From Giardia intestinalis (taxonomy: Eukaryota), in NCBI GenBank assembly GCA_000002435.2, contig CM018792.1: a DNA stretch of 64,000 nt; one strand, given 5' to 3'. Within the stretch, counting starts at the first letter, position 1; each line of letters starts with the position of its first letter. The position numbers were made by a program, and so were the translations under genes. This document shows positions 19,366 through 63,705 of this stretch, in pieces. The notes beneath the pieces are model-generated. The model did no database searches. It saw only the letters and a list, made by a program, of their open reading frames with translations, and was not told where the DNA came from.

Positions 19366-19377
19366 ACGCAGCTAAGT

Positions 19378-21147
19378 CTACGCCTTCCCCCTGCAGAGGA
19401 ACCACCAGCAGAGGAAGCCCACGAGGCCCCCCACGACGACGACCACAGCGACGGAGATCCCCGCGATGGCGCCTGTGCTGAGGCCGCTCCTGTTGGCGCC
19501 AGAGGACACACACTTACCACCCTCCAGACTGTACCCATCACTGCACTCCCCACACACATCATCCATCACACAGCTCTTGCAATCACCCACAGAGCATGTC
19601 ACACACCCACTGCCGTCCTTGTTGGGCTTCCTATCACTGTCACAGGAGGTACACACAGCGGGGGTCATGCCAGCATCAGATGGAGCTGTTGGGGCTGTAC
19701 ACTGTGAACAGCCATCCACCCCCACGTATGCCTTCTGACCAGCCAGCTCGACACCAAGGGGGTTCCCACAGGAGAGGACAGACTGCTTGTCCTTGGTGGG
19801 CGAGGGAGGGATGAAGTACCCAGCTGCCGCCTCTGTGCAGACACCATCACCTGCCTTTGTGCACATGGACTTACCCGGCTGAGCTGATATACTATAACAA
19901 CCACCCATGTATAGGAAGTATCCCATAGTACATGATGTGCAGACATTATTGACACATCCTGTATTGCCTTTAGCCTCACTAGCACAGAGACCATCAATAG
20001 GGAACTCACTGTCCTTTCCACAGTAAGAACAGTAGTGAAGCTCCTTCCCTGTGTTGTCGATTACTATTGCATCACAGGCTCCAGATGTCCCACCACAGGC
20101 CGTGGGGTCTTCACACACCTTTGTACACGTGACCCCAGTTGAAGGTTCTCCACTGGGTCTGTAGTTCACCTTGCATTTTGTGCACTTAAATGTGCCACTA
20201 TTTGTGCACTCGGCACACCCCTCGATGCCACCTTTGGTTGTGTCACTACATGAGATGCACTCACCAGAGGAGCTATCCTTCAAGAAGTACCCTTGCTTAC
20301 ATGTCAGGCACTTACTCGGATCTTCCTTCTTGGAGCATGTCGCACAGCCTGGAGCGCACGGATCGCACGCAAAACCCCCACCGTTAGTATTCTCGATGTA
20401 TCCCTCCAGGCATTTTGAACAGGTTGGCGGATTTCCTGCCGTCTTCTCACATATGCTGCACCCGGCAATGCCCTTATCATTTACGCCAGCATCAGGGGAC
20501 GCATCGCCGCAAAGAGCACACGTTTTGTCCTCCTTCATAAATAAGGCCCCGTCAGCGCCCTTGCACCCGTCAAGCGTTTTATCGACGCAGGTCGATGTCC
20601 CGTCGAGGGCCGTCCTGGGGGTCTTATTGGTCCCGCAGTTAGTGCACTTCGGCTTCCCCGTGGTCTTGTCGAAGGAGCATGCCGTGCAATCTGCGTGTAT
20701 CTCACTGCATGCTTTGCAGGTCATTGTTAGCTCGTCTGCATACTGATTGTTCTCACACGTATTAGAGCATGAGTTATCTGACTTCAGATAGGTCCCCGGC
20801 TTGCATGTCTCACAGTTGGTCGCACCGGCCCCGGTACATGTGGCACAGTTCTGATTGCATGGCTTGCAAAGCTTATCGCTCAGGAAGTATCCATCTTGGC
20901 AGGTACTACATGTAGCTGCTCCTGCACTCTGTGGTGCCTGACACTGTGCGCAGTTATCCACTCCCATGACCCCGTCTCTCTGTGTAGTATCAGAGCAGAG
21001 GATGCACTCGTTGCCAGGGGCTACTGGGCTGGCCGGGTTCTGGAATAGATACGCGGCGCCTGCCTTGCAGGTGGTGCACACTCCCTTGTCGGCCGCCGTG
21101 CATATCTCGTTGCCAGGATCTTGTCCTACCTTGTAGCACCCGCCCAT
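19378..21147 (-). pseudogene. Variant-specific surface protein (VSP) fragment, 5'-truncated: no signal peptide and no in-frame ATG at the equivalent N-terminus
   Basis: CXXC-rich ORF ending GGLVGFLCWWFLCRGKA*. The ORF-track start at 21189 is GTG, and the first in-frame ATG (21145-21147) gives MGGCYKVGQDPG..., with no signal peptide. The ORF begins only about 40 bp after the CRGKA stop of the upstream VSP. Body is homologous to the VSP at 60022-62094 from about residue 60 onward. Confidence 0.6.
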
Positions 21148-21216
21148 GAAGAGGAGTCCCACACCATCACTATCACCCCCACACCACACATAGCACTATC
21201 ACTATCACTGTACAGC

Positions 21217-21231
21217 ATTCACTACCTAAGT
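21217..21231 (-). promoter_or_regulatory. VSP extended polyadenylation signal (ACTTAGGTAGTGAAT)
   Basis: Immediately follows TGA of the repeat-containing VSP. Matches consensus ACTYAGRTAGTRAAY. Confidence 0.6.
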
Positions 21232-24200
21232 CACGCCTTCCCTCTACAGATGAACCACCAGCAGAGGAACCCTACGAGGCCCCCCACGACGACGACCACA
21301 GCCACGGAGATCCCCGCGATGGCACCTGTGCTGAGGCCGCTCTTGTTGACGCTTCCGCCGGTGTTGTCGCCGTCTGTTTTGATATAGCAGGTGACAGGAC
21401 CGCCATTGCCACCAGCTGGCGGGGCGCAGCTTACGCAATTAGCGACACCAGTGATTTGGTTGTTATTTCCACTACTAGCTGTACATTTGAAGCATTTATC
21501 ACCGGCACCTTTGTAGTATCCAGGAAGGCATTCAGTGCAGGCATTAGAATCATTGCATTTTGCACAGCCTTCAGAGCACTCCGGACACTTCTCTTGCACA
21601 GGTGCCTGGTTATTTGCAGCACACATAGTGCACTTTCCGTTACTAGCGAGCGTGCAAACCGATTTGCCAGGAAGCTTAGCCACACCATAGCACCCGCCCG
21701 ACATGAGAGTATACTCTCCTGCACATTTGGTGCACTTGCCATCTGCCGCCGTGCATACGCTCGCGTCTCTCCCGGCAGCTGCCACCGTTGTACAAATTCC
21801 GTCGATCGGGGCGTACCCGTCCTTGCACTGAGCACAGTACTTCGCGCCCCCCACGTTAGCCGTGCACTGCCCGTCTGCACAGTTGGTAATGAACGCACCA
21901 GTGCACTCCTTGACGCATGTTCCGGCTGTGCCAGATCCATACAGGAGAGAATACCCGGGATAGCAGGCCGTGCAGGAAGCAGCGTTTGCATCGCCGTTGC
22001 ATTCTGCACACGTAGCATGGCAGGAAGCACAGACACTGACTCCGTTAATATTATCGGCATATGTTCCAGCAGGACAGTTGTCCAAGCATGCATTGCCCGA
22101 AGGAGTAAGCCGCTTGTCTGTACACTCGGAGCACACAACCGTCGATTCTGCTTCTCCAGAGAGCGTTTTGAGGGCACACTTTTTGCAGCCTGTGATGCCG
22201 TGGGTTGCGTCGCTGCATGAGAGGCACATCCCCTTCGAGTCACCGGCCTTCTCTCTAGTGAAGTGCGTCTTATCGGAGGTGCACTCTTCGGCAGTAAGGC
22301 ACGCTCCCGATTGCCCAGCTGCAGACTCTGGCTTTAGATACCGTCCCTCTTTACAGCCAGTGCACTTGTCGGCCTGGTTCGTCATGGCGTTCTCGGTGCA
22401 TCCGTCGCAGCTGGAGTGGCACCCCGGCGTGGCGGCGGGGCATTTCCCGTTCTCTGGTGGTGCGCCGGTACTGCATCTAGCGCAGACATCATTCTGATCG
22501 CATCGTTCACAGTTAGCATCTGAGCAAGAGAAGCACTGCGTACCTGCAGTATTAGGCTTTTGGCCTTCTGCACACTTCTTGCACTCCTTTGCGTCGGAAA
22601 CGCTGTCGTCGGTGTAGTAGCCCGCGCTCCCCTGGCAGTCGACCGCGCTGACGCACGTCCCCGTCGGGTCGCTGGGATTCGTCTTCTTCAGGTAGGGCGC
22701 GGCGCCGTTTGCGTCGCATTTGGTGCACTTATCGGCCGTTCCAGCACACGCCGTGCAAGGGGCGTTGCACTTCTTGCACTCCTTTGCGTCGGAAACGCTG
22801 TCGTCGGTGTAGTAGCCCGCGCTCCCCTGGCAGTCGACCGCGCTGACGCACGTCCCCGTCGGGTCGCTGGGATTCGTCTTCTTCAGGTAGGGCGCGGCGC
22901 CGTTTGCGTCGCATTTGGTGCACTTATCGGCCGTTCCAGCACACGCCGTGCAAGGGGCGTTGCACTTCTTGCACTCCTTTGCGTCGGAAACGCTGTCGTC
23001 GGTGTAGTAGCCCGCGCTCCCCTGGCAGTCGACCGCGCTGACGCACGTCCCCGTCGGGTCGCTGGGATTCGTCTTCTTCAGGTAGGGCGCGGCGCCGTTT
23101 GCGTCGCATTTGGTGCACTTATCGGCCGTTCCAGCACACGCCGTGCAAGGGGCGTTGCACTTCTTGCACTCCTTTGCGTCGGAAACGCTGTCGTCGGTGT
23201 AGTAGCCCGCGCTCCCCTGGCAGTCGACCGCGCTGACGCACGTCCCCGTCGGGTCGCTGGGATTCGTCTTCTTCAGGTAGGGCGCGGCGCCGTTTGCGTC
23301 GCATTTGGTGCACTTATCGGCCGTTCCAGCACACGCCGTGCAAGGGGCGTTGCACTTCTTGCACTCCTTTGCGTCGGAAACGCTGTCGTCGGTGTAGTAG
23401 CCCGCGCTCCCCTGGCAGTCGACCGCGCTGACGCACGTCCCCGTCGGGTCGCTGGGATTCGTCTTCTTCAGGTAGGGCGCGGCGCCGTTTGCGTCGCATT
23501 TGGTGCACTTATCGGCCGTTCCAGCACACGCCGTGCAAGGGGCGTTGCACTTCTTGCACTCCTTTGCGTCGGAAACGCTGTCGTCGGTGTAGTAGCCCGC
23601 GCTCCCCTGGCAGTCGACCGCGCTGACGCACGTCCCCGTCGGGTCGCTGGGATTCGTCTTCTTCAGGTAGGGCGCGGCGCCGTTTGCGTCGCATTTGGTG
23701 CACTTATCGGCCGTTCCAGCACACGCCGTGCAAGGGGCGTTGCACTTCTTGCACTCCTTTGCGTCGGAAACGCTGTCGTCGGTGTAGTAGCCCGCGCTCC
23801 CCTGGCAGTCGACCGCGCTGACGCACGTCCCCGTCGGGTCGCTGGGATTCGTCTTCTTCAGGTAGGGCGCGGCGCCGTTTGCGTCGCATTTGGTGCACTT
23901 ATCGGCCGTTCCAGCACACGCCGTGCAAGGGGCGTTGCACTTCTTGCACTCCTTTGCGTCGGAAACGCTGTCGTCGGTGTAGTAGCCCGCGCTCCCCTGG
24001 CAGTCGACCGCGCTGACGCACGTCCCCGTCGGGTCGCTGGGATTCGTCTTCTTCAGGTAGGGCGCGGCGCCGTTTGCGTCGCATTTGGTGCACTTATCGG
24101 CCGTTCCAGCACACGCCGTGCAAGGGGCGTTGCACTTCTTGCACTCCTTTGCGTCGGAAACGCTGTCGTCGGTGTAGTAGCCCGCGCTCCCCTGGCAGTC

Positions 24201-24815
24201 GACCGCGCTGACGCACGTCCCCGTCGGGTCGCTGGGATTCGTCTTCTTCAGGTAGGGCGCGGCGCCGTTTGCGTCGCATTTGGTGCACTTATCGGCCGTT
24301 CCAGCACACGCCGTGCAAGGGGCGTTGCACTTCTTGCACTCCTTTGCGTCGGAAACGCTGTCGTCGGTGTAGTAGCCCGCGCTCCCCTGGCAGTCGACCG
24401 CGCTGACGCACGTCCCCGTCGGGTCGCTGGGATTCGTCTTCTTCAGGTAGGGCGCGGCGCCGTTTGCGTCGCATTTGGTGCACTTATCGGCCGTTCCAGC
24501 ACACGCCGTGCAAGGGGCGTTGCACTTCTTGCACTCCTTTGCGTCGGAAACGCTGTCGTCGGTGTAGTAGCCCGCGCTCCCCTGGCAGTCGACCGCGCTG
24601 ACGCACGTCCCCGTCGGGTCGCTGGGATTCGTCTTCTTCAGGTAGGGCGTGTTGCCGTTTGCGTCGCATTTGGTGCATTTTTTCCCAGTTGAATCGCATT
24701 CAGCGCAACCATCGATCGATGGACTGCATGCATCAGCCAGTGCGACTGCAAAAATCAAACCAATTCCTACCAACATTGAGGCCAGAAGCTGGCACAGCAC
24801 CGCTCTGGTTTGCAT
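21231..24815 (-). CDS. Variant-specific surface protein (VSP) with about eleven tandem 65-aa repeats; reminiscent of the vspA6/CRP170-type repeat VSPs
   Basis: Ends ...VGGLVGFLCWWFICRGKA*. The track start at 24938 is TTG. Candidate true starts are ATG 24813-24815 (MQTRAVLCQLLASMLVGIGLIFAVALADA) or 24774-24776 (MLVGIGLIFAVALADA, a typical 16-aa VSP signal peptide). Dense CXXC and GGCY motifs throughout. The central region consists of near-identical 65-aa units: KKTNPSDPTGTCVSAVDCQGSAGYYTDDSVSDAKECKKCNAPCTACAGTADKCTKCDANGAAPYL. Confidence 0.85.
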   Translation of the reverse strand: MQTRAVLCQLLASMLVGIGLIFAVALADACSPSIDGCAECDSTGKKCTKCDANGNTPYLKKTNPSDPTGTCVSAVDCQGSAGYYTDDSVSDAKECKKCNAPCTACAGTADKCTKCDANGAAPYLKKTNPSDPTGTCVSAVDCQGSAGYYTDDSVSDAKECKKCNAPCTACAGTADKCTKCDANGAAPYLKKTNPSDPTGTCVSAVDCQGSAGYYTDDSVSDAKECKKCNAPCTACAGTADKCTKCDANGAAPYLKKTNPSDPTGTCVSAVDCQGSAGYYTDDSVSDAKECKKCNAPCTACAGTADKCTKCDANGAAPYLKKTNPSDPTGTCVSAVDCQGSAGYYTDDSVSDAKECKKCNAPCTACAGTADKCTKCDANGAAPYLKKTNPSDPTGTCVSAVDCQGSAGYYTDDSVSDAKECKKCNAPCTACAGTADKCTKCDANGAAPYLKKTNPSDPTGTCVSAVDCQGSAGYYTDDSVSDAKECKKCNAPCTACAGTADKCTKCDANGAAPYLKKTNPSDPTGTCVSAVDCQGSAGYYTDDSVSDAKECKKCNAPCTACAGTADKCTKCDANGAAPYLKKTNPSDPTGTCVSAVDCQGSAGYYTDDSVSDAKECKKCNAPCTACAGTADKCTKCDANGAAPYLKKTNPSDPTGTCVSAVDCQGSAGYYTDDSVSDAKECKKCNAPCTACAGTADKCTKCDANGAAPYLKKTNPSDPTGTCVSAVDCQGSAGYYTDDSVSDAKECKKCAEGQKPNTAGTQCFSCSDANCERCDQNDVCARCSTGAPPENGKCPAATPGCHSSCDGCTENAMTNQADKCTGCKEGRYLKPESAAGQSGACLTAEECTSDKTHFTREKAGDSKGMCLSCSDATHGITGCKKCALKTLSGEAESTVVCSECTDKRLTPSGNACLDNCPAGTYADNINGVSVCASCHATCAECNGDANAASCTACYPGYSLLYGSGTAGTCVKECTGAFITNCADGQCTANVGGAKYCAQCKDGYAPIDGICTTVAAAGRDASVCTAADGKCTKCAGEYTLMSGGCYGVAKLPGKSVCTLASNGKCTMCAANNQAPVQEKCPECSEGCAKCNDSNACTECLPGYYKGAGDKCFKCTASSGNNNQITGVANCVSCAPPAGGNGGPVTCYIKTDGDNTGGSVNKSGLSTGAIAGISVAVVVVVGGLVGFLCWWFICRGKA
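22573..24690. repeat. Tandem array of about 10.9 copies of a 195-bp unit, essentially identical copies, in-frame (65 aa) within the VSP
   Basis: Sequence periodicity of 195 bp is visible directly (e.g. gcacttatcggccgttccagcacacgccgtgcaaggggcgttgcacttcttgcactcc recurring every 195 nt). The ten identical 64-aa antisense ORFs in the ORF track at 22729, 22924, ... 24484 confirm identity of copies. The last copy diverges slightly at 24640-24690. Confidence 0.9.
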
Positions 24816-54153: not shown

Positions 54154-54488
54154 CTAGGGCTTGAACTCGGCGTCCATGGACGTCACGGCGATGATGAAGT
54201 ACTTGCCTTCGGGGATACAAATAATTTCACGCTTGTCAGACCTGATACGGACGTAATTAAGCTCGTTTGTGGGGTCTATGTCGCGTATAGCAGATCGAGA
54301 CAATACAGTATAGGATGAGACAAGTTTCACGTATCTGGCAGTCATTTCGTCATCGAATGTGCTCCGGATAACTGTGCCGTCGTCCATGAGGACCAGAAGA
54401 CCCTGCACACCCGGATGGGTGCTAATTCTCTTTATTGTAGCCTCTACGTCATTCTGTGTGTTAGGTTATGCGGGAGATAACATACCAT
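54154..54488 (-). CDS. Dynein light chain roadblock-type (LC7/DYNLRB); two exons: ATG (54486-54488) and 54154-54453
   Basis: Spliced product MNDVEATIKRISTHPGVQGLLVLMDDGTVIRSTFDDEMTARYVKLVSSYTVLSRSAIRDIDPTNELNYVRIRSDKREIICIPEGKYFIIAVTSMDAEFKP aligns end-to-end with human DYNLRB1 ([36 protein letters not shown]...[35 protein letters not shown]). The unspliced ORF lacks an in-frame ATG covering the N-terminus. Confidence 0.8.
54454..54485 (-). other. 32-nt spliceosomal intron: GTATGTTATCTCCCGCATAACCTAACACACAG
   Basis: 5' GTATGT follows directly after the ATG. 3' end ACCTAACACACAG matches the Giardia fused branch-point/acceptor consensus [AC]CT[AG]AC[AC]CACAG. Splicing restores the roadblock reading frame precisely. 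Confidence 0.8.
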
Positions 54489-58523: not shown

Positions 58524-59534
58524 CTACTTAAACAGGTTTCCGCGTACCATCTTCAAATACTTGCTGTCTGGCCTTTTAAGAGGCGTAATAAAGTTTTCCA
58601 ACTTCTTATGTATCTTTTTGGTGTCAACTGTACGATCTTTGTTAATGAGTCTGTCCCGTCGTGGCCTGGTGCTTGCCTTTTTTGCTTGCAGCCTCTTCAG
58701 TTGCTCCATGACTACCATGGGGTTGGATGCACTGCCAGATTGCATCACATCTTGGCAGAGAGTAACGAGAAAATCCGAGTCGCAGAAGCAACCTCGCCAT
58801 ATCTCTGGTGCGCGCTTCTCGCGGGTAGAGGTATCTTTCTTGCTAGGGGTTTGGTTCATTGCGTCTTCCCCTTCGAGCAGTGATATTGGCCTCTTTGGTG
58901 CCTTCTCGTGTTCAGGGAGACAATCAGAATACTCAGACTGGTTTGAATGCTCGTCATCATTTGTATCTTTATTGGGGAATGCGCTAACGGTTGTATATGG
59001 AGTTGGAACGCCCAACGGAATAATCCCTCTCAGATTTGTATGTATTCGTCGTGCATATCTCTCCATATCCTGCAATAAGTAGCTTATTTGTCCGCCTATT
59101 GATTGATTTATTACAACTAACTTGTCTGTCTGATCAATGGAGGAGAGCCCTCCGTGTATCGTTTCCAGAAAGGACGTCATTGTCGGTAGAAATTCATCGG
59201 ACGGTGAGTCACCGAGGGTAGGCTCAAACCAGGGTCGATCCTCCAAGAGTTTCACTGTACTAGCTTCCATTTCTCTCACAGTGTTGTTTAATCCAATGAT
59301 AACCTTTGACAGCTGAGAGGCCTTTTCACCTGTGCTTGCAATTGCTTCACTAAGCTCAGCATTGGCCTGAAATAATGGAAGAGACCCGCTGTCCGGCAGC
59401 AAAGACACCTGCTCAAGAATCTTTTCAAAATTAATTCTTAGTCCTACAAGCTCATTGAGAAGTGTATATTGCTTGTAAACTTCCTTTGCTTGGGCCAATT
59501 TCTGTTCCGACCCATCGTCTTCAAATAACTGCAT
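58524..59534 (-). CDS. Hypothetical protein
   Basis: 336-aa ORF with ATG verified at 59532-59534 and an AT-rich upstream region (caaaaataa). No recognisable domain. Confidence 0.4.
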   Translation of the reverse strand: MQLFEDDGSEQKLAQAKEVYKQYTLLNELVGLRINFEKILEQVSLLPDSGSLPLFQANAELSEAIASTGEKASQLSKVIIGLNNTVREMEASTVKLLEDRPWFEPTLGDSPSDEFLPTMTSFLETIHGGLSSIDQTDKLVVINQSIGGQISYLLQDMERYARRIHTNLRGIIPLGVPTPYTTVSAFPNKDTNDDEHSNQSEYSDCLPEHEKAPKRPISLLEGEDAMNQTPSKKDTSTREKRAPEIWRGCFCDSDFLVTLCQDVMQSGSASNPMVVMEQLKRLQAKKASTRPRRDRLINKDRTVDTKKIHKKLENFITPLKRPDSKYLKMVRGNLFK

Positions 59535-60021
59535 TTATTTTTGAGTCGAGGATTTGCTTTGTTTTAGCAGTCTGTTCCCTTCAACTCACAAGAGGCAGGT
59601 ACTGTTGTAGCTTCTCTTGTTGAGCAAATGTGCGGCAGCATGGCTTTTGTCAATGGTCTATACAGCTCAGCGGCAGAGCCACCCTCTCTGAGACGACCTG
59701 TATAAAGAGCGAGAGCAATAACAAAGCATCAGGATAGCGATCACTAGCCAAGTGTGGTAGAACACGTGATAGTTACAGGCATCACATACAAGAAGGCTGT
59801 GGGCACTATGGTGGAGGACAACACTCAATACTCCAGAGTTGGATGCCACAGCGCCCTAAGTACTGGTAGAGATGCGATCTGACAGTCGGCACTCTCCACT
59901 GGGCACGTACTGGATAGCCTTCTGAGATGAAAGTTGATGATAATCGAGATTGACTAGTGACCCCAAAAACAGAGCTTGTTCACCAGAAGAGTACAACGTC
60001 AGCAGAATCCTATCAGGATTT

Positions 60022-62094
60022 ATGCTACACCACAGCCTTTCTACTGATACCCCTGTTCGTGGCGAGCACCATCGCAGTGACCTGCCAGCAAGACGGGAAC
60101 CATACAGCGACCTGCGCACAGAATAAGTGCGAGACGGTCGGGGCCACCGAGATCTGCACCCAGTGCAGGGCCGGGGCGTCCCGGTCGACGGCTTCTGCCG
60201 GCCCCCCGGCTCCCCCCAGGCCGCGGCAGCCGGGTGCACCAAGGAAGACGGGACTGCCCTCGACAAGACGGCAGCCACCTGCGGGAAGTGCGGCGACGGG
60301 TACTTCCTCTTCATGGGCGGGTGCTACAACAAGGATGCACACCCTGGCAGTGACATATGCACACAGGCTGAGGGAGGACTGTGCACTGAGTGTAATACAA
60401 AGAACGGCCTGTTCAAGAACCCGGCTGCAGCACCGAAGCCTGGTAATGAGTGCATTCTGTGCTGGGACACGGTGGGAGATGGCGCGACAAAGGGAGTAGA
60501 GAACTGCGCCACATGTACAGCACCGGGGAATGCAGGAGTAGCTACATGTGATACCTGTCAAGATGGATACTACAAGGACTCTCTGGTATGTATGCAGTGT
60601 GATCAGTCTTGTCTGACCTGCGATGGAAGTGGTCCGAATCAGTGCACCTCTTGTAAGGAGGGGAAGTACCTGAAAGGGACTGAGTGTGTAGACAAAGGTA
60701 CGTGTAAGACTGACTACTACCCCGATGACACTAGCATGACCTGCGTTGCCTGTAGCACCATACAAGATTGCACAGCATGCACAATGGACCAGTCCACGGG
60801 GAAGCCAAAGTGCACTAACTGCGGTAGTCAGAAGATCCCCAGGACGACCCTCGACGGGACCTCGACCTGTGTGGAAAATTCTTATGCTGGGTGTCAAGGC
60901 ACAGACAAGGAGCTGTTCATGAAGGAGGACCAACCGGAGTGCCTGCTGTGTGGAGATGCTACAACGGGAACAGATCCGAAAGATAAAGGCGTCGCTAATT
61001 GTAGGACATGCACTAAAGCCAGCGCTACTGGAGCCGCACCGGTCTGTGAGACATGCAAGGAAGGATACATTAAGAATGGAAATGGTGCGGGCGCCACGTG
61101 TGAGGCTTGTCATCAGAACTGTGCCACATGTTCTGAAGCTACGACAGAAAATAAGTGCCTGACCTGCAAAGAGGGGTTCTTCCTGGCCGGCACCGGCGAA
61201 GGAAAGTGCATCTCGTGCGAGAATGGTAATGATAGTGGCTACAGCGGGCTTGCAGGATGCCTCTCTTGCACAGCCCCAGCCGCCCCGGGCCCGGCCAGCT
61301 GCAACCGCTGCAAGATCGGCTACACGCTACAGGGAACAACGTGTGTGAAGACCTGCGAGGATGAGACTGCCTGTGGGGGGACCTCTGGGGCCTGTGATGC
61401 CATAGTGATCGGTGCCAATGGAAAGGAGCTTCACTACTGTTCCTATTGTGGAGAGGCTAATAAGTATCCTATCAACGGTGTCTGTGTTAGTACTGGTAAT
61501 GAAAATGGGAATACTTGTGCTAAAGGTGTATGTACACAGTGCACTACGGGATACTTTATGTACATGGGAGGCTGTTATAAGGTGACAGAGGTGCCGGGTA
61601 AGTCCATGTGCACAAAGGCAGGCGATGGTGTCTGCACAGAGGCGGCAGCCGGGTACTTCATCCCTCCCTCGCCCACCAAGGACAAGCAGTCCGTGTTGGC
61701 ATGTAGTAACCCCCTTGGTGTCGAGCTGGCTGGTCAGAAGGCATACGTGGGGGTGGATGGCTGTTCACAGTGTACAGCCCCAACAGCTCCATCTGATGCT
61801 GGCATGACCCCCGCTGTGTGTACCTCCTGTGACAGTGATAGGAAGCCCAACAAGGATGGCAGTGGGTGTGTGCTGTGCTCTGTGGGTGGTTGCAAGAGCT
61901 GTGTGATGGATGATGTGTGTGGGGAGTGCAGTGATGGGTACAGTCTGGAGGGTGGTAAGTGTGTGTCCTCTGGCGCCAACAGGAGCGGGCTGTCTACTGG
62001 CGCCATCGCGGGGATCTCCGTCGCTGTGGTCGCTGTCGTGGGGGGCCTCGTGGGCTTCCTCTGCTGGTGGTTCCTGTGTAGGGGGAAGGCGTGA
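60022..62094 (+). pseudogene. Variant-specific surface protein (VSP) with two compensating frameshifts in the 5' region (pseudogene or sequence error)
   Basis: The ATG at 60022 and the VSP body (60127-62094, ending ...GGLVGFLCWWFLCRGKA*) are in frame 0. The signal peptide and first CXXC module (..CYTTAFLLIPLFVASTIAVTCQQDGNHTATCAQNKCETVGATEICTQCRAG) are encoded in frame +1 from about 60025 to about 60200. Frame 0 hits TAA at about 60118, and the frame returns to 0 in the C/G homopolymer run gccggccccccggctcccccc (about 60195-60215). The C-terminal 165 aa are nearly identical to the VSP fragment at 19378-21147. Confidence 0.6.
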
Positions 62095-62108
62095 CTCAGG
62101 TAGTGAAC
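62094..62108 (+). promoter_or_regulatory. VSP extended polyadenylation signal (ACTCAGGTAGTGAAC)
   Basis: Directly follows the TGA stop. Matches ACTYAGRTAGTRAAY. Confidence 0.6.
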
Positions 62109-62367
62109 GCTCCGTTGGTTGTTAGTGCTCAGTGAGCGTCTGCTGTCCATCCACCCAGTACTGTTCTGAGGGCAGTGTGCGCTGGGAGCGGTCTCCAGGG
62201 CCCTCCCGGCCGGGCGGCGCGACTCGTGCTGGCGTGCAACTATAAAAATAGAGAACAACTGTACCATGATATAGCTAAACAGCCACAATCTCTTACTAAC
62301 TACAGGAAGCACGACCATTGCAATTCCTTTACAAAAGTCTAGCTTCAGATAAAGGATGCTTATATCT

Positions 62368-63705
62368 TCAGGTAGGCATAGACAGGTGAGCAAATATAGT
62401 ATTAAGGAAAGTACTACAAACAGTGCTCTTTACAGATGTAGCGGCATGTAGTGCCAACCTTAAAGTCTTCTCGGTGCCCTCCAATGAAAGAAGCTCACAA
62501 AGGCTGCATTTGTTATCAAGGTAAGCACACCATACAAGGGCTGTCCATCCATTCTTATCTGGTATACCCGCTGCGTAAGGTAATAGGAGTCGTATTGCAT
62601 GTAAGTCCCCTGTAAAAGCTGCGATGTGCAAAGGCGTAAAATGCATCAGCGTATCCTGAAGCATAGCCTCGTAAGGCGCAAGTAATTCTATTATTTCGTG
62701 TCGATGCAGAGAGACTGCTAAGTGGAGGGCTGTGATGTGGCTTAGTAAGTGACCACAGATGGTGACCGAGGAAGCTAGACGCATTCTAGCCTCATAGATC
62801 CGCAGCTTTTCAACAGCAGGAGCACAATTCTTCAGTACTGCTATAAATAAAGCCGTGTGCCCATTTCTGGCCACAAAGCGTGTCGTACTGTAATCAACAC
62901 ATAGAGTGTTCCTTGAAGCATCAGAGCAACCACCTTCAGAAATGGTTTGCATCAAGGGTGTTTCCCCACAGACATCTCGCTTAAGTCCCCTGAAGTAATC
63001 AATTGCTGCTTGGACTTCCGCAATCCGAGGATTCCTGTACAGTACCTGATCTTGGCTATCGCTCTTGACCAAAGTATACTTAGATGGCCGAAATGCAAAG
63101 TCAAGAATTAGCTCTTCTCCTGTCGGCGAAAATGATGTGCTCTTTTTAGATAGGTACCTCCGGACAAGGTCTCGCTCCTTAGTAGCAGAAGCATGGGCCA
63201 GGAACATGCTTTGTAATATAGATGCCAACTTATCTAGAAGGAGCCTACCATATACTGCGCGTGTCTCTATGCGGTTGGATCTGAGAGCAGGGAGGCATCT
63301 TAACCCTTGTATCAGTGATATCGATGAATATCCATAGTCATCCACAGCAATCAAGGAGGCAGAGAGGCAATCGGTAAGCATCGCGAAAACGTCAGGATCG
63401 TCTGTGATCGTAAATAAGTACGTAGCGAGCCCCAAAAGATCAAGAAACACGGAGTAGATGAGCAGCTTTGAAATGGGACAAATAGTAAGGGCTGCCTCAT
63501 CAATAATATCCTGGAGAGAAACAGAGTGCTTCTTTTCAATCTCGCAAACAGCCATGTCCTGCACAAATTTAACACTGAGTATCCTGTTTAGACATTTATG
63601 GTTCAACCCCATTAGTAGTCGCAGGCGCCGGCACAGGTCCATCGACTGTGTTAAGTCCTCAGAAGAACAAGAAACTAAAGGAATAATTTGCAGATCTTGC
63701 GGCAT
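62368..63705 (-). CDS. Ankyrin-repeat protein (Giardia 'protein 21.1'-like; possible degenerate NEK-kinase-like N-terminus)
   Basis: Track start is GTG; ATG at 63703-63705 (MPQDLQIIPLV...). C-terminal half has ankyrin repeats (GHTALFIAVLKN..., TALHLAVSLHRHEIIELL, TPLHIAAFTGDLHAIRLLL, GWTALVWCAYL). Confidence 0.5.
   Translation of the reverse strand: MPQDLQIIPLVSCSSEDLTQSMDLCRRLRLLMGLNHKCLNRILSVKFVQDMAVCEIEKKHSVSLQDIIDEAALTICPISKLLIYSVFLDLLGLATYLFTITDDPDVFAMLTDCLSASLIAVDDYGYSSISLIQGLRCLPALRSNRIETRAVYGRLLLDKLASILQSMFLAHASATKERDLVRRYLSKKSTSFSPTGEELILDFAFRPSKYTLVKSDSQDQVLYRNPRIAEVQAAIDYFRGLKRDVCGETPLMQTISEGGCSDASRNTLCVDYSTTRFVARNGHTALFIAVLKNCAPAVEKLRIYEARMRLASSVTICGHLLSHITALHLAVSLHRHEIIELLAPYEAMLQDTLMHFTPLHIAAFTGDLHAIRLLLPYAAGIPDKNGWTALVWCAYLDNKCSLCELLSLEGTEKTLRLALHAATSVKSTVCSTFLNTIFAHLSMPT

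Follow-up and report, generated by a model that had tools for sequence, protein, structure and literature searches.

Results

Organization of the locus

The stretch of DNA analysed here, referred to below as the window, comprises 64,000 nucleotides of contig CM018792.1 from the 2020 PacBio/Illumina assembly of Giardia intestinalis WB. It contains a VSP gene on the plus strand, preceded by an upstream intergenic region (59535-60021) that lies between the VSP locus and a divergently transcribed gene for a 336-aa protein. Translation bears out the first-pass annotation of this DNA in placing the ATG at 60022 and the C-terminal body of the gene in one frame, which the ATG shares with a long ORF at 60127-62094. 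Read from this ATG, the frame encodes a nonsense peptide, MLHHSLSTDTPVRGEHH..., and closes after 34 codons (60022-60126) with a TAA at 60124-60126; the early stop had been recognized correctly, although its position had been given as about 60118. The hydrophobic leader had been assigned to another frame, and this too holds: the next frame over encodes a leader and a first cysteine module (YTTAFLLIPLFVASTIAVTCQQDGNHTATCAQNKCETVGATEICTQCRAG, 60026-60175), in agreement with the tblastn alignments described below. Within that frame, which runs one base after the frame of the ATG, the remnant signal-peptide leader YTTAFLLIPLFVASTIAVTC occupies 60026-60085 on the plus strand and the first cysteine module CQQDGNHTATCAQNKCETVGATEICTQCRAG occupies 60083-60175, the boundary falling between YTTAFLLIPLFVASTIAVTC and QQDGNHTATCAQNKCETVGATEICTQCRAG.

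The body of the gene follows in the frame of ATG 60022 and extends over 640 codons, from 60175 to 62094. It includes a transmembrane segment (61999-62076) and the CRGKA motif (62077-62091), its last residues reading ...FLCWWFLCRGKA before a TGA at 62092-62094. A pattern search places the polyadenylation signal AGTGAAC, which conforms to AGTRAAY, at 62102-62108, 8 nt past the stop codon.

The family membership of this body is clear. Its 640 residues hold 75 cysteines and 27 CXXC motifs, as expected of a cysteine-rich VSP ectodomain, and the transmembrane segment followed by CRGKA is the C-terminal arrangement of VSPs. The frame-corrected protein scores 164.4 bits against Pfam PF03302 (cut-off 31.4), and its best 120 database matches consist of cysteine-rich surface proteins from Giardia, PF03302 being present in nearly all of them. 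A further hallmark of a VSP, a signal peptide in frame with both start and body, is missing at the locus. A protein search with a chimera of the shifted-frame peptides returned no gene calls with the same frameshift from other assemblies.

Leader and start codon

The displaced leader retains the character of a signal peptide. Its mean Kyte-Doolittle hydropathy is 1.79, versus -1.22 for the ATG frame, and it aligns to the leaders of the proteins P0007, P0123, P0104 and P0020; the first cysteine module is identical to that of the intact WB paralogue P0007 in 28 of 28 residues. No in-frame start codon stands ahead of the WB leader, and the context of the ATG at 60022, TTatgCT, does not fit the initiator (Inr) consensus PyAatgTT. 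A pattern search for the VSP initiator, [CT]AATGTT, found none anywhere in 59001-62500; the VSP at 21231-24776 of the same window is unlike the locus in this respect and has the initiator CAATGTT. According to Adam (2010, PMC2996952), PyAatgTT occurs at the start of 41% of 260 WB vsp genes with complete 5' ends and in all vsp genes that earlier publications had described. Compared with the canonical starts of two other VSP genes, CAATGTTGCTAACAGCCTTT (L003) and TAATGTTCCAACTG (L002), the locus has lost its PyAatgTT initiator. A scan with sigma-70 promoter and terminator models, which are not applicable to a eukaryote, found nothing.

The frameshift in the G run

When seven VSP relatives were aligned by tblastn, the leader and module peptide matched in the leader frame with E values of 1e-16 to 1e-30, and in all seven the match passed to the body frame at nucleotide 60175, between ...AG and GVPVDGFC, that is, between the pattern ...C(R/K)xG and GVPVDGFC. 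Nucleotide alignments show what happens at this point. The WB window reads GCCGGGGCGTCC, and seven other sequences (L002, L005, L006 and L009 from DH; L003, L007 and L008 from ENA) read GCCGGGGGCGTCC: the run is GGGGG in seven of the seven and GGGG in the window, at 60173-60176 on the plus strand. G4 is found in both WB assemblies, those of 2007 and 2020. Since the relatives have G5 and the window G4, the return to the body frame is a 1-nt loss in the G5 run at 60173-60176, the single real frameshift of the locus.

This result differs from the first-pass annotation, which had invoked a nearly compensating +1/-1 pair of indels and had mapped the return shift to the C-rich stretch gccggccccccggctcccccc (60199-60217). 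There is only one indel, the -1 in the G run, and the missing base belongs about 30 nt upstream of the suspected stretch. The C-rich stretch itself is translated in frame, as RPPGSPQ; the first of its two C6 runs is C6 in every aligned relative, and the second differs in length only in L006 from DH, where it is C5. Patterns covering the G run, in either the G4 or the G5 form, matched nothing among JGI metagenome contigs, a collection that accordingly offers no Giardia sequence of this tract.

Syntenic orthologues in A2-type assemblies

Orthologues of the locus are present in three A2-type assemblies: ENA ERZ28528424 NODE_39 (L007), ENA ERZ27317378 (L008) and DH AHGT01000091 (L009). The kinesin gene and the gene for the 336-aa protein adjoin the locus in all three, and L007 additionally has the ankyrin gene and a complete VSP. 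Over 59535-60395 the window is 93% identical to these orthologues, and in the four-way alignment no gap column other than the G run occurs before 60405. The 5' shift, which had also been ascribed to an indel, has no counterpart in this alignment, in which the G run is the sole gap column against the three orthologues throughout 59535-60404. What distinguishes WB at position 60022 is a substitution: all three orthologues have GTG where WB has ATG, the spacing to the leader is identical, and the sequence CTACACCACAGCCTTTCTACTGATACCC that follows the position is the same in the orthologues and WB. The WB ATG is a point variant of the orthologous GTG that happens to fall in the frame taken by the body once the G is deleted. 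An out-of-frame ATG hits a given one of the other two frames about half the time by chance, so the apparent compensation between start and body needs no special explanation. A +1 insertion after the ATG, as the MLLTAF-type start of L003 would suggest, was considered and set aside because the orthologues have identical spacing; for the same reason, an insertion separating the ATG from the leader, if it ever happened, would have to be ancient.

The orthologue in L007 is a single frame of 753 codons from an upstream stop to CRGKA. Leader (LCYTTAFLLIPLFVASALMAAC) and body share this frame, yet no start codon precedes the leader, within which the first in-frame methionine is found, in ...SALMAAC, four residues before the first cysteine. 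The A2-type orthologues thus have G5 and one frame, and the two-frame arrangement of WB is not conserved. The start-less leader is found in both WB (A1) and the A2-type genomes, which indicates that the start was lost before the A1/A2 split. The view that the gene looks recently functional finds no support here, given a leader without an in-frame start in the A1 genome of WB and in the A2-type genomes alike.

Could the arrangement in two frames be functional, either through programmed ribosomal frameshifting or as a reversible on/off switch in the G tract? The shift does lie in a homopolymer, within a tract of the form G5...C6...C6, and in a second VSP, L006 from DH, the latter of the two C runs in this tract is short by 1 nt. 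On the other side, the DH genome may contain homopolymer errors of the 454 type. The frame opened by the ATG ends after its 34 codons, some 50 nt short of the G run, and with the TAA ahead of the run ribosomes starting from the ATG would never reach it. Moreover, the orthologues are single-frame, and the leader is without an in-frame start in any lineage. We regard a functional frameshift or switch as extremely unlikely.

Agreement between the WB assemblies

The accuracy of the WB sequence was assessed by comparing the window with the 2007 annotation, which is Sanger-based. Two hypothetical proteins of that annotation are encoded antisense to the VSP gene. The first, GL50803_20674 (XP_001707758.1, 152 aa), corresponds to an ORF at 59856-60314 on the minus strand, which extends across the G run as well as the ATG region; the second, GL50803_20672 (XP_001707760.1, 362 aa), corresponds to an ORF at 60025-61113 on the minus strand, which covers the G run. 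Exact-sequence look-up showed both to match the window from the first residue to the last. An indel between the Sanger and PacBio assemblies would alter the antisense products, and the two assemblies therefore agree at both sites, an agreement that, being drawn from the identity of these products, excludes, in those frames, any indel or non-synonymous change. Over 7.3 kb, an Illumina-derived Logan contig also agrees with the window at 100% identity, with zero 1-nt indels. The 2007 annotation contains many spurious antisense ORFs.

The conserved genes elsewhere in the window are intact. One neighbour, a VSP of 1181 aa, is KAE8304195.1 / XP_001707734.2; the 2007 version of that gene had 2259 aa, which marks the window as belonging to the 2020 assembly. 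Neighbouring pairs of ORFs on the same strand were considered as genes split by frameshifts, which would have been a sign of poor assembly, and turned out to be separate genes. The 593-aa gene model of 2007 was likewise considered as proof of G4 in the Sanger assembly and was discarded, since its first methionine is identical with G4 or G5; the run has no bearing on it because there is no ATG before the leader.

These data speak to the possibility that the locus is an artefact, with the true WB sequence having G5 and an in-frame ATG and encoding an intact VSP. A deletion in a G homopolymer is at a typical site of PacBio consensus error, all relatives have G5, and 85 indels had to be corrected in the draft of this assembly, with gene truncations resulting from such errors (Xu et al., PMC7000408). 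Nevertheless, an error of this kind would have to be reconciled with 2007 antisense products that are identical to the 2020 window over both intervals given above and with a 5' defect that recurs, with the same spacing, in three independent A2-type assemblies; restoring G5 would still leave the leader with no start codon before it. An artefact is accordingly very improbable. The first-pass annotation had offered homopolymer sequencing error and an inactivated VSP as alternatives, and the agreement of the 2007 and 2020 assemblies leads us to reject the former, the inactivated gene being supported. The broken reading frame of WB being genuine, no correction of the assembly is needed.

Annotation history and the internal methionine

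The 2007 gene model at the locus, XP_001707761.1 ('VSP [Giardia lamblia ATCC 50803]'), begins at the internal methionine of FLFMGGCY and spans 60313-62094 on the plus strand. It has no signal peptide, and its 593 residues are exactly the product read from that methionine in the window (P0121). This model is probably vsp68 / GL50803_15123 of Adam 2010, a mapping made by length, mass, cysteines and CXXC motifs: vsp68 is listed with 593 aa, 60.4 kDa, 71 Cys and 26 CXXC, as a clade I gene without Inr on chromosome 4 (PMC2996952). Two genes listed beside vsp68 in that table likewise lie within the window: vsp66 at 19378-21189 and vsp67 at 21231-24776.

The model did not persist. In the 2020 annotation the kinesin-9, 336-aa and ankyrin proteins have the consecutive accessions KAE8304215, KAE8304216 and KAE8304217, with no VSP entry between them, and the protein cluster of the 593-aa product consists of 2007-derived members only. 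Xu et al. (2020) gave VSPs without a proper signal peptide either a corrected start or the label of pseudo-VSP, and arrived at totals of 133 VSPs and 208 psiVSPs (PMC7000408). The locus has the properties of the latter class: it is VSP-like, it has no proper signal peptide, no alternative start rescues it, and it has no protein in the 2020 annotation, where the flanking KAE8304216.1 and KAE8304217.1 follow one another directly. From this gap-free accession series and the description by Xu et al., we infer that the locus was annotated as a psiVSP in 2020. The identifiers GL50803_15123, GL50803_33783 and GL50803_14297 are not mentioned in the main texts of the searchable literature; the portion of one proteomics supplement that was covered contained none of them, and its numeric matches were coincidental.

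Might the 593-aa protein nonetheless be expressed from the ATG at 60313, reaching the membrane through its C-terminal motifs and with no classical signal peptide? The 593-codon ORF is intact and includes the CXXC motifs, transmembrane segment and CRGKA, with the polyadenylation signal behind it; genes of this kind were scored as 'complete' by Adam 2010 (PMC2996952), and according to Li et al. 2013 (PMC3656445) the targeting of VSPs to the surface needs no specific N-terminal sequence. The methionine, on the other hand, has no Inr at 60313, and the N-terminus it would create, MGGCYNKDAH, is hydrophilic, with a mean hydropathy of -0.76. The methionine itself falls midway through GYFLFMGGCY, a conserved module with an internal position in all intact VSPs. 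The protein was dropped in the 2020 re-annotation, and the gene identifiers are without mention in the searchable literature. Expression from the internal methionine seems very unlikely to us.

Mosaic structure of the gene

The similarity between the window and its A2 orthologue is unevenly distributed. The flanks, 59535-60395 and 61927-62400, have 92-93% identity to the orthologue, and the central 1.5 kb has 72% or does not align at all. Within the leader and first module of WB, short segments are unlike the orthologue and like other VSPs: the leader patch GAGCACCATCGCAGTGACCTGCCAG is the same in the DH paralogue L005 and differs from the gene's own orthologue, and P0007, the intact WB paralogue, contains the peptide DGNHTATCAQNKCETVGATEICTQCRAG unchanged. 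The 3' 730 nt have 87% identity to the VSP at 19372-20103 of the same window. Among the proteins of 2007 there is also a near-twin, XP_001707790.1, with only ten residue differences, clustered in the last 70. Judged by these patterns of identity, the mosaic is most likely accounted for by segmental gene conversion among VSP genes. Gene conversion also explains better than recent inactivation would why an old pseudogene should retain an open body of 640 codons.

Discussion

What, then, is this gene? We consider it highly probable that the locus is a psiVSP, a silent VSP copy in Giardia intestinalis WB that cannot be translated into a surface antigen. The leader is without an in-frame start and without the VSP initiator, a defect common to WB and the A2-type syntenic gene and therefore old. 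WB has additionally lost one G of the G5 run at 60173-60176, parting the leader and first cysteine module from the body. The ATG at 60022 is a single-base variant that stands in the body frame by chance and opens only the ORF of 34 codons. Such a gene could not give rise to a secreted VSP: a transcript would be expected to yield either the 34-aa peptide or a signal-less product of the internal methionine. The body may have been kept open, and 'fresh' in appearance, by repeated overwriting from other VSP genes through gene conversion, and the copy may survive as a source of sequence for recombination and not as an antigen that is expressed.

The locus resembles the published psiVSP class (PMC7000408) in having a VSP body, transmembrane segment, CRGKA and polyadenylation signal together with no proper signal peptide or start. 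It departs from the class in two respects. psiVSPs tend to occur in arrays (PMC7000408), whereas this gene is solitary, between the AATF-like and ankyrin genes; and it keeps a near-complete leader and the first cysteine module, both wholly missing from the array member at 19378-21189. The likeness to the no-Inr clade I gene vsp68 of Adam 2010 covers size, cysteines, CXXC motifs, the missing Inr and the vsp66/vsp67 neighbours. That description differs in treating the gene as 'complete' from an internal ATG and as a member of a linear array, in which the window locus does not lie, and the frameshifted leader is not described there (PMC2996952).

A further analogy is offered by the silent VSG archive of Trypanosoma brucei, a large reservoir of non-expressible copies with frameshifts and missing starts that exchange segments with other members of the family. 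The protein family, the organism and the control of expression are unrelated between VSGs and Giardia VSPs. In T. brucei, VSG pseudogenes have been shown to donate segments to an expressed gene by conversion; to our knowledge the like has not been shown for Giardia VSPs.

Could silent copies of this kind be maintained by selection? Adam et al. 2010 proposed that no-Inr vsp genes are unexpressed and possibly serve as recombination cassettes (PMC2996952). In line with this proposal, both the A1 and A2 lineages have a start-less and yet open frame of about 650-750 codons, and stretches from other VSPs have taken the place of its central 1.5 kb and of small patches in the leader. That the locus is a selectively maintained donor cassette, and that psiVSPs form an archive in active use for new mosaic antigens, is a tentative suggestion to which we give rather little weight. 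If it were true, psiVSPs would resemble trypanosome VSG pseudogenes and would not be decaying junk, and the syntenic comparison of A1 and A2 would be one concrete test case for the archive idea of Adam et al.

The locus belongs to a class that has already been published, in the Giardia genome that has been studied most thoroughly, and in that sense is already known, which leaves it of little importance beyond bookkeeping. The bookkeeping has some practical consequences. It would be wrong to take the 593-aa VSP model of 2007 for an antigen that can be expressed, and in counts of functional VSPs, or in the design of VSP vaccines or serology, the copy is to be grouped with the roughly 208 pseudo-VSPs. 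The inactivation can be dated to before the divergence of A1 and A2. Finally, the conserved flanks and replaced middle seen between A1 and A2 make the gene a tidy example of a mosaic VSP, which could be used in a wider study of recombination.

VSP genes comparable to the pseudogene

The absence of a start codon recurs in a second VSP of the window, located at 19378-21189 on the minus strand (XP_001707733.1). The N-terminal ~90 residues of this linear-array member are wholly missing, and the start-less gene lies 42 nt 3' of the stop codon of an A6-like VSP. As with the pseudo-VSP at 60022-62094 (+), its protein records are exclusively 2007-derived. It probably corresponds to vsp66/MM1.

The adjoining A6/vsp67-like gene (21231-24776, minus strand) is a true VSP that has a CAATGTT initiator and a signal peptide, and it contains 10.8 copies of a 195-nt repeat at 22573-24677. 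Its product is 1181 aa long in the 2020 annotation (KAE8304195.1), whereas both the 2007 annotation and the vsp catalogue of Adam 2010 (PMC2996952) give 25 repeats and a length of 2259 aa. The repeat number of this gene therefore varies between assemblies or clones.

A close relative of the 593-aa model of the pseudo-VSP is encoded outside the window. The 2007 protein XP_001707790.1 (P0001) is identical to the model over the first 524 residues, and the 10 differences between the two are clustered within the last 70. This near-twin is probably vsp69 (GL50803_33783).

A start codon is also missing from L006, a VSP of isolate DH, in which the second C run of the G5...C6...C6 tract is C5 instead of C6 (AHGT01000044.1, about 1650-1680). 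The first-pass annotation had placed the return frameshift of the pseudo-VSP in a homopolymer stretch; we observe a C-run frameshift of the expected type here, in a gene other than the one studied. The shortened run may reflect genuine slippage or, alternatively, a homopolymer error in the DH assembly.

Antisense and upstream sequences of the pseudogene

Two minus-strand ORFs of the 2007 annotation overlap the pseudo-VSP, encoding the hypothetical proteins GL50803_20674 (59856-60314) and GL50803_20672 (60025-61113). Records of both are 2007-derived only, and both ORFs were almost certainly called as genes in error.

Between WB and A2-type genomes, the intergenic sequence that precedes the VSP is near-identical apart from a patch of ~70 nt at 59734-59804, which accumulates about 17 differences. 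Short-read Logan contigs stop at the edges of this patch, the A2-type contigs L010-L012 at 59726 and the WB-type contig L001 at 59811. What could these contig ends represent? They could mark the boundary of a repeat or the end of a transcript, or reflect allelic variation.

L001 (SRR2642204) is 100% identical to the window except for the precise absence of a 32-nt Giardia-type intron, GTATGTTATCTCCCGCATAACCTAACACACAG (54454-54485, minus strand), positioned directly 3' of the start codon (ATG, 54486-54488) of a Roadblock/LC7 dynein light chain gene. Since exactly the intron is missing and the remainder matches throughout, the contig appears, judging from this alignment, to derive from spliced RNA. 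A literature search for the dynein light chain intron returned no match. The intron appears to be the known dynein light chain intron.
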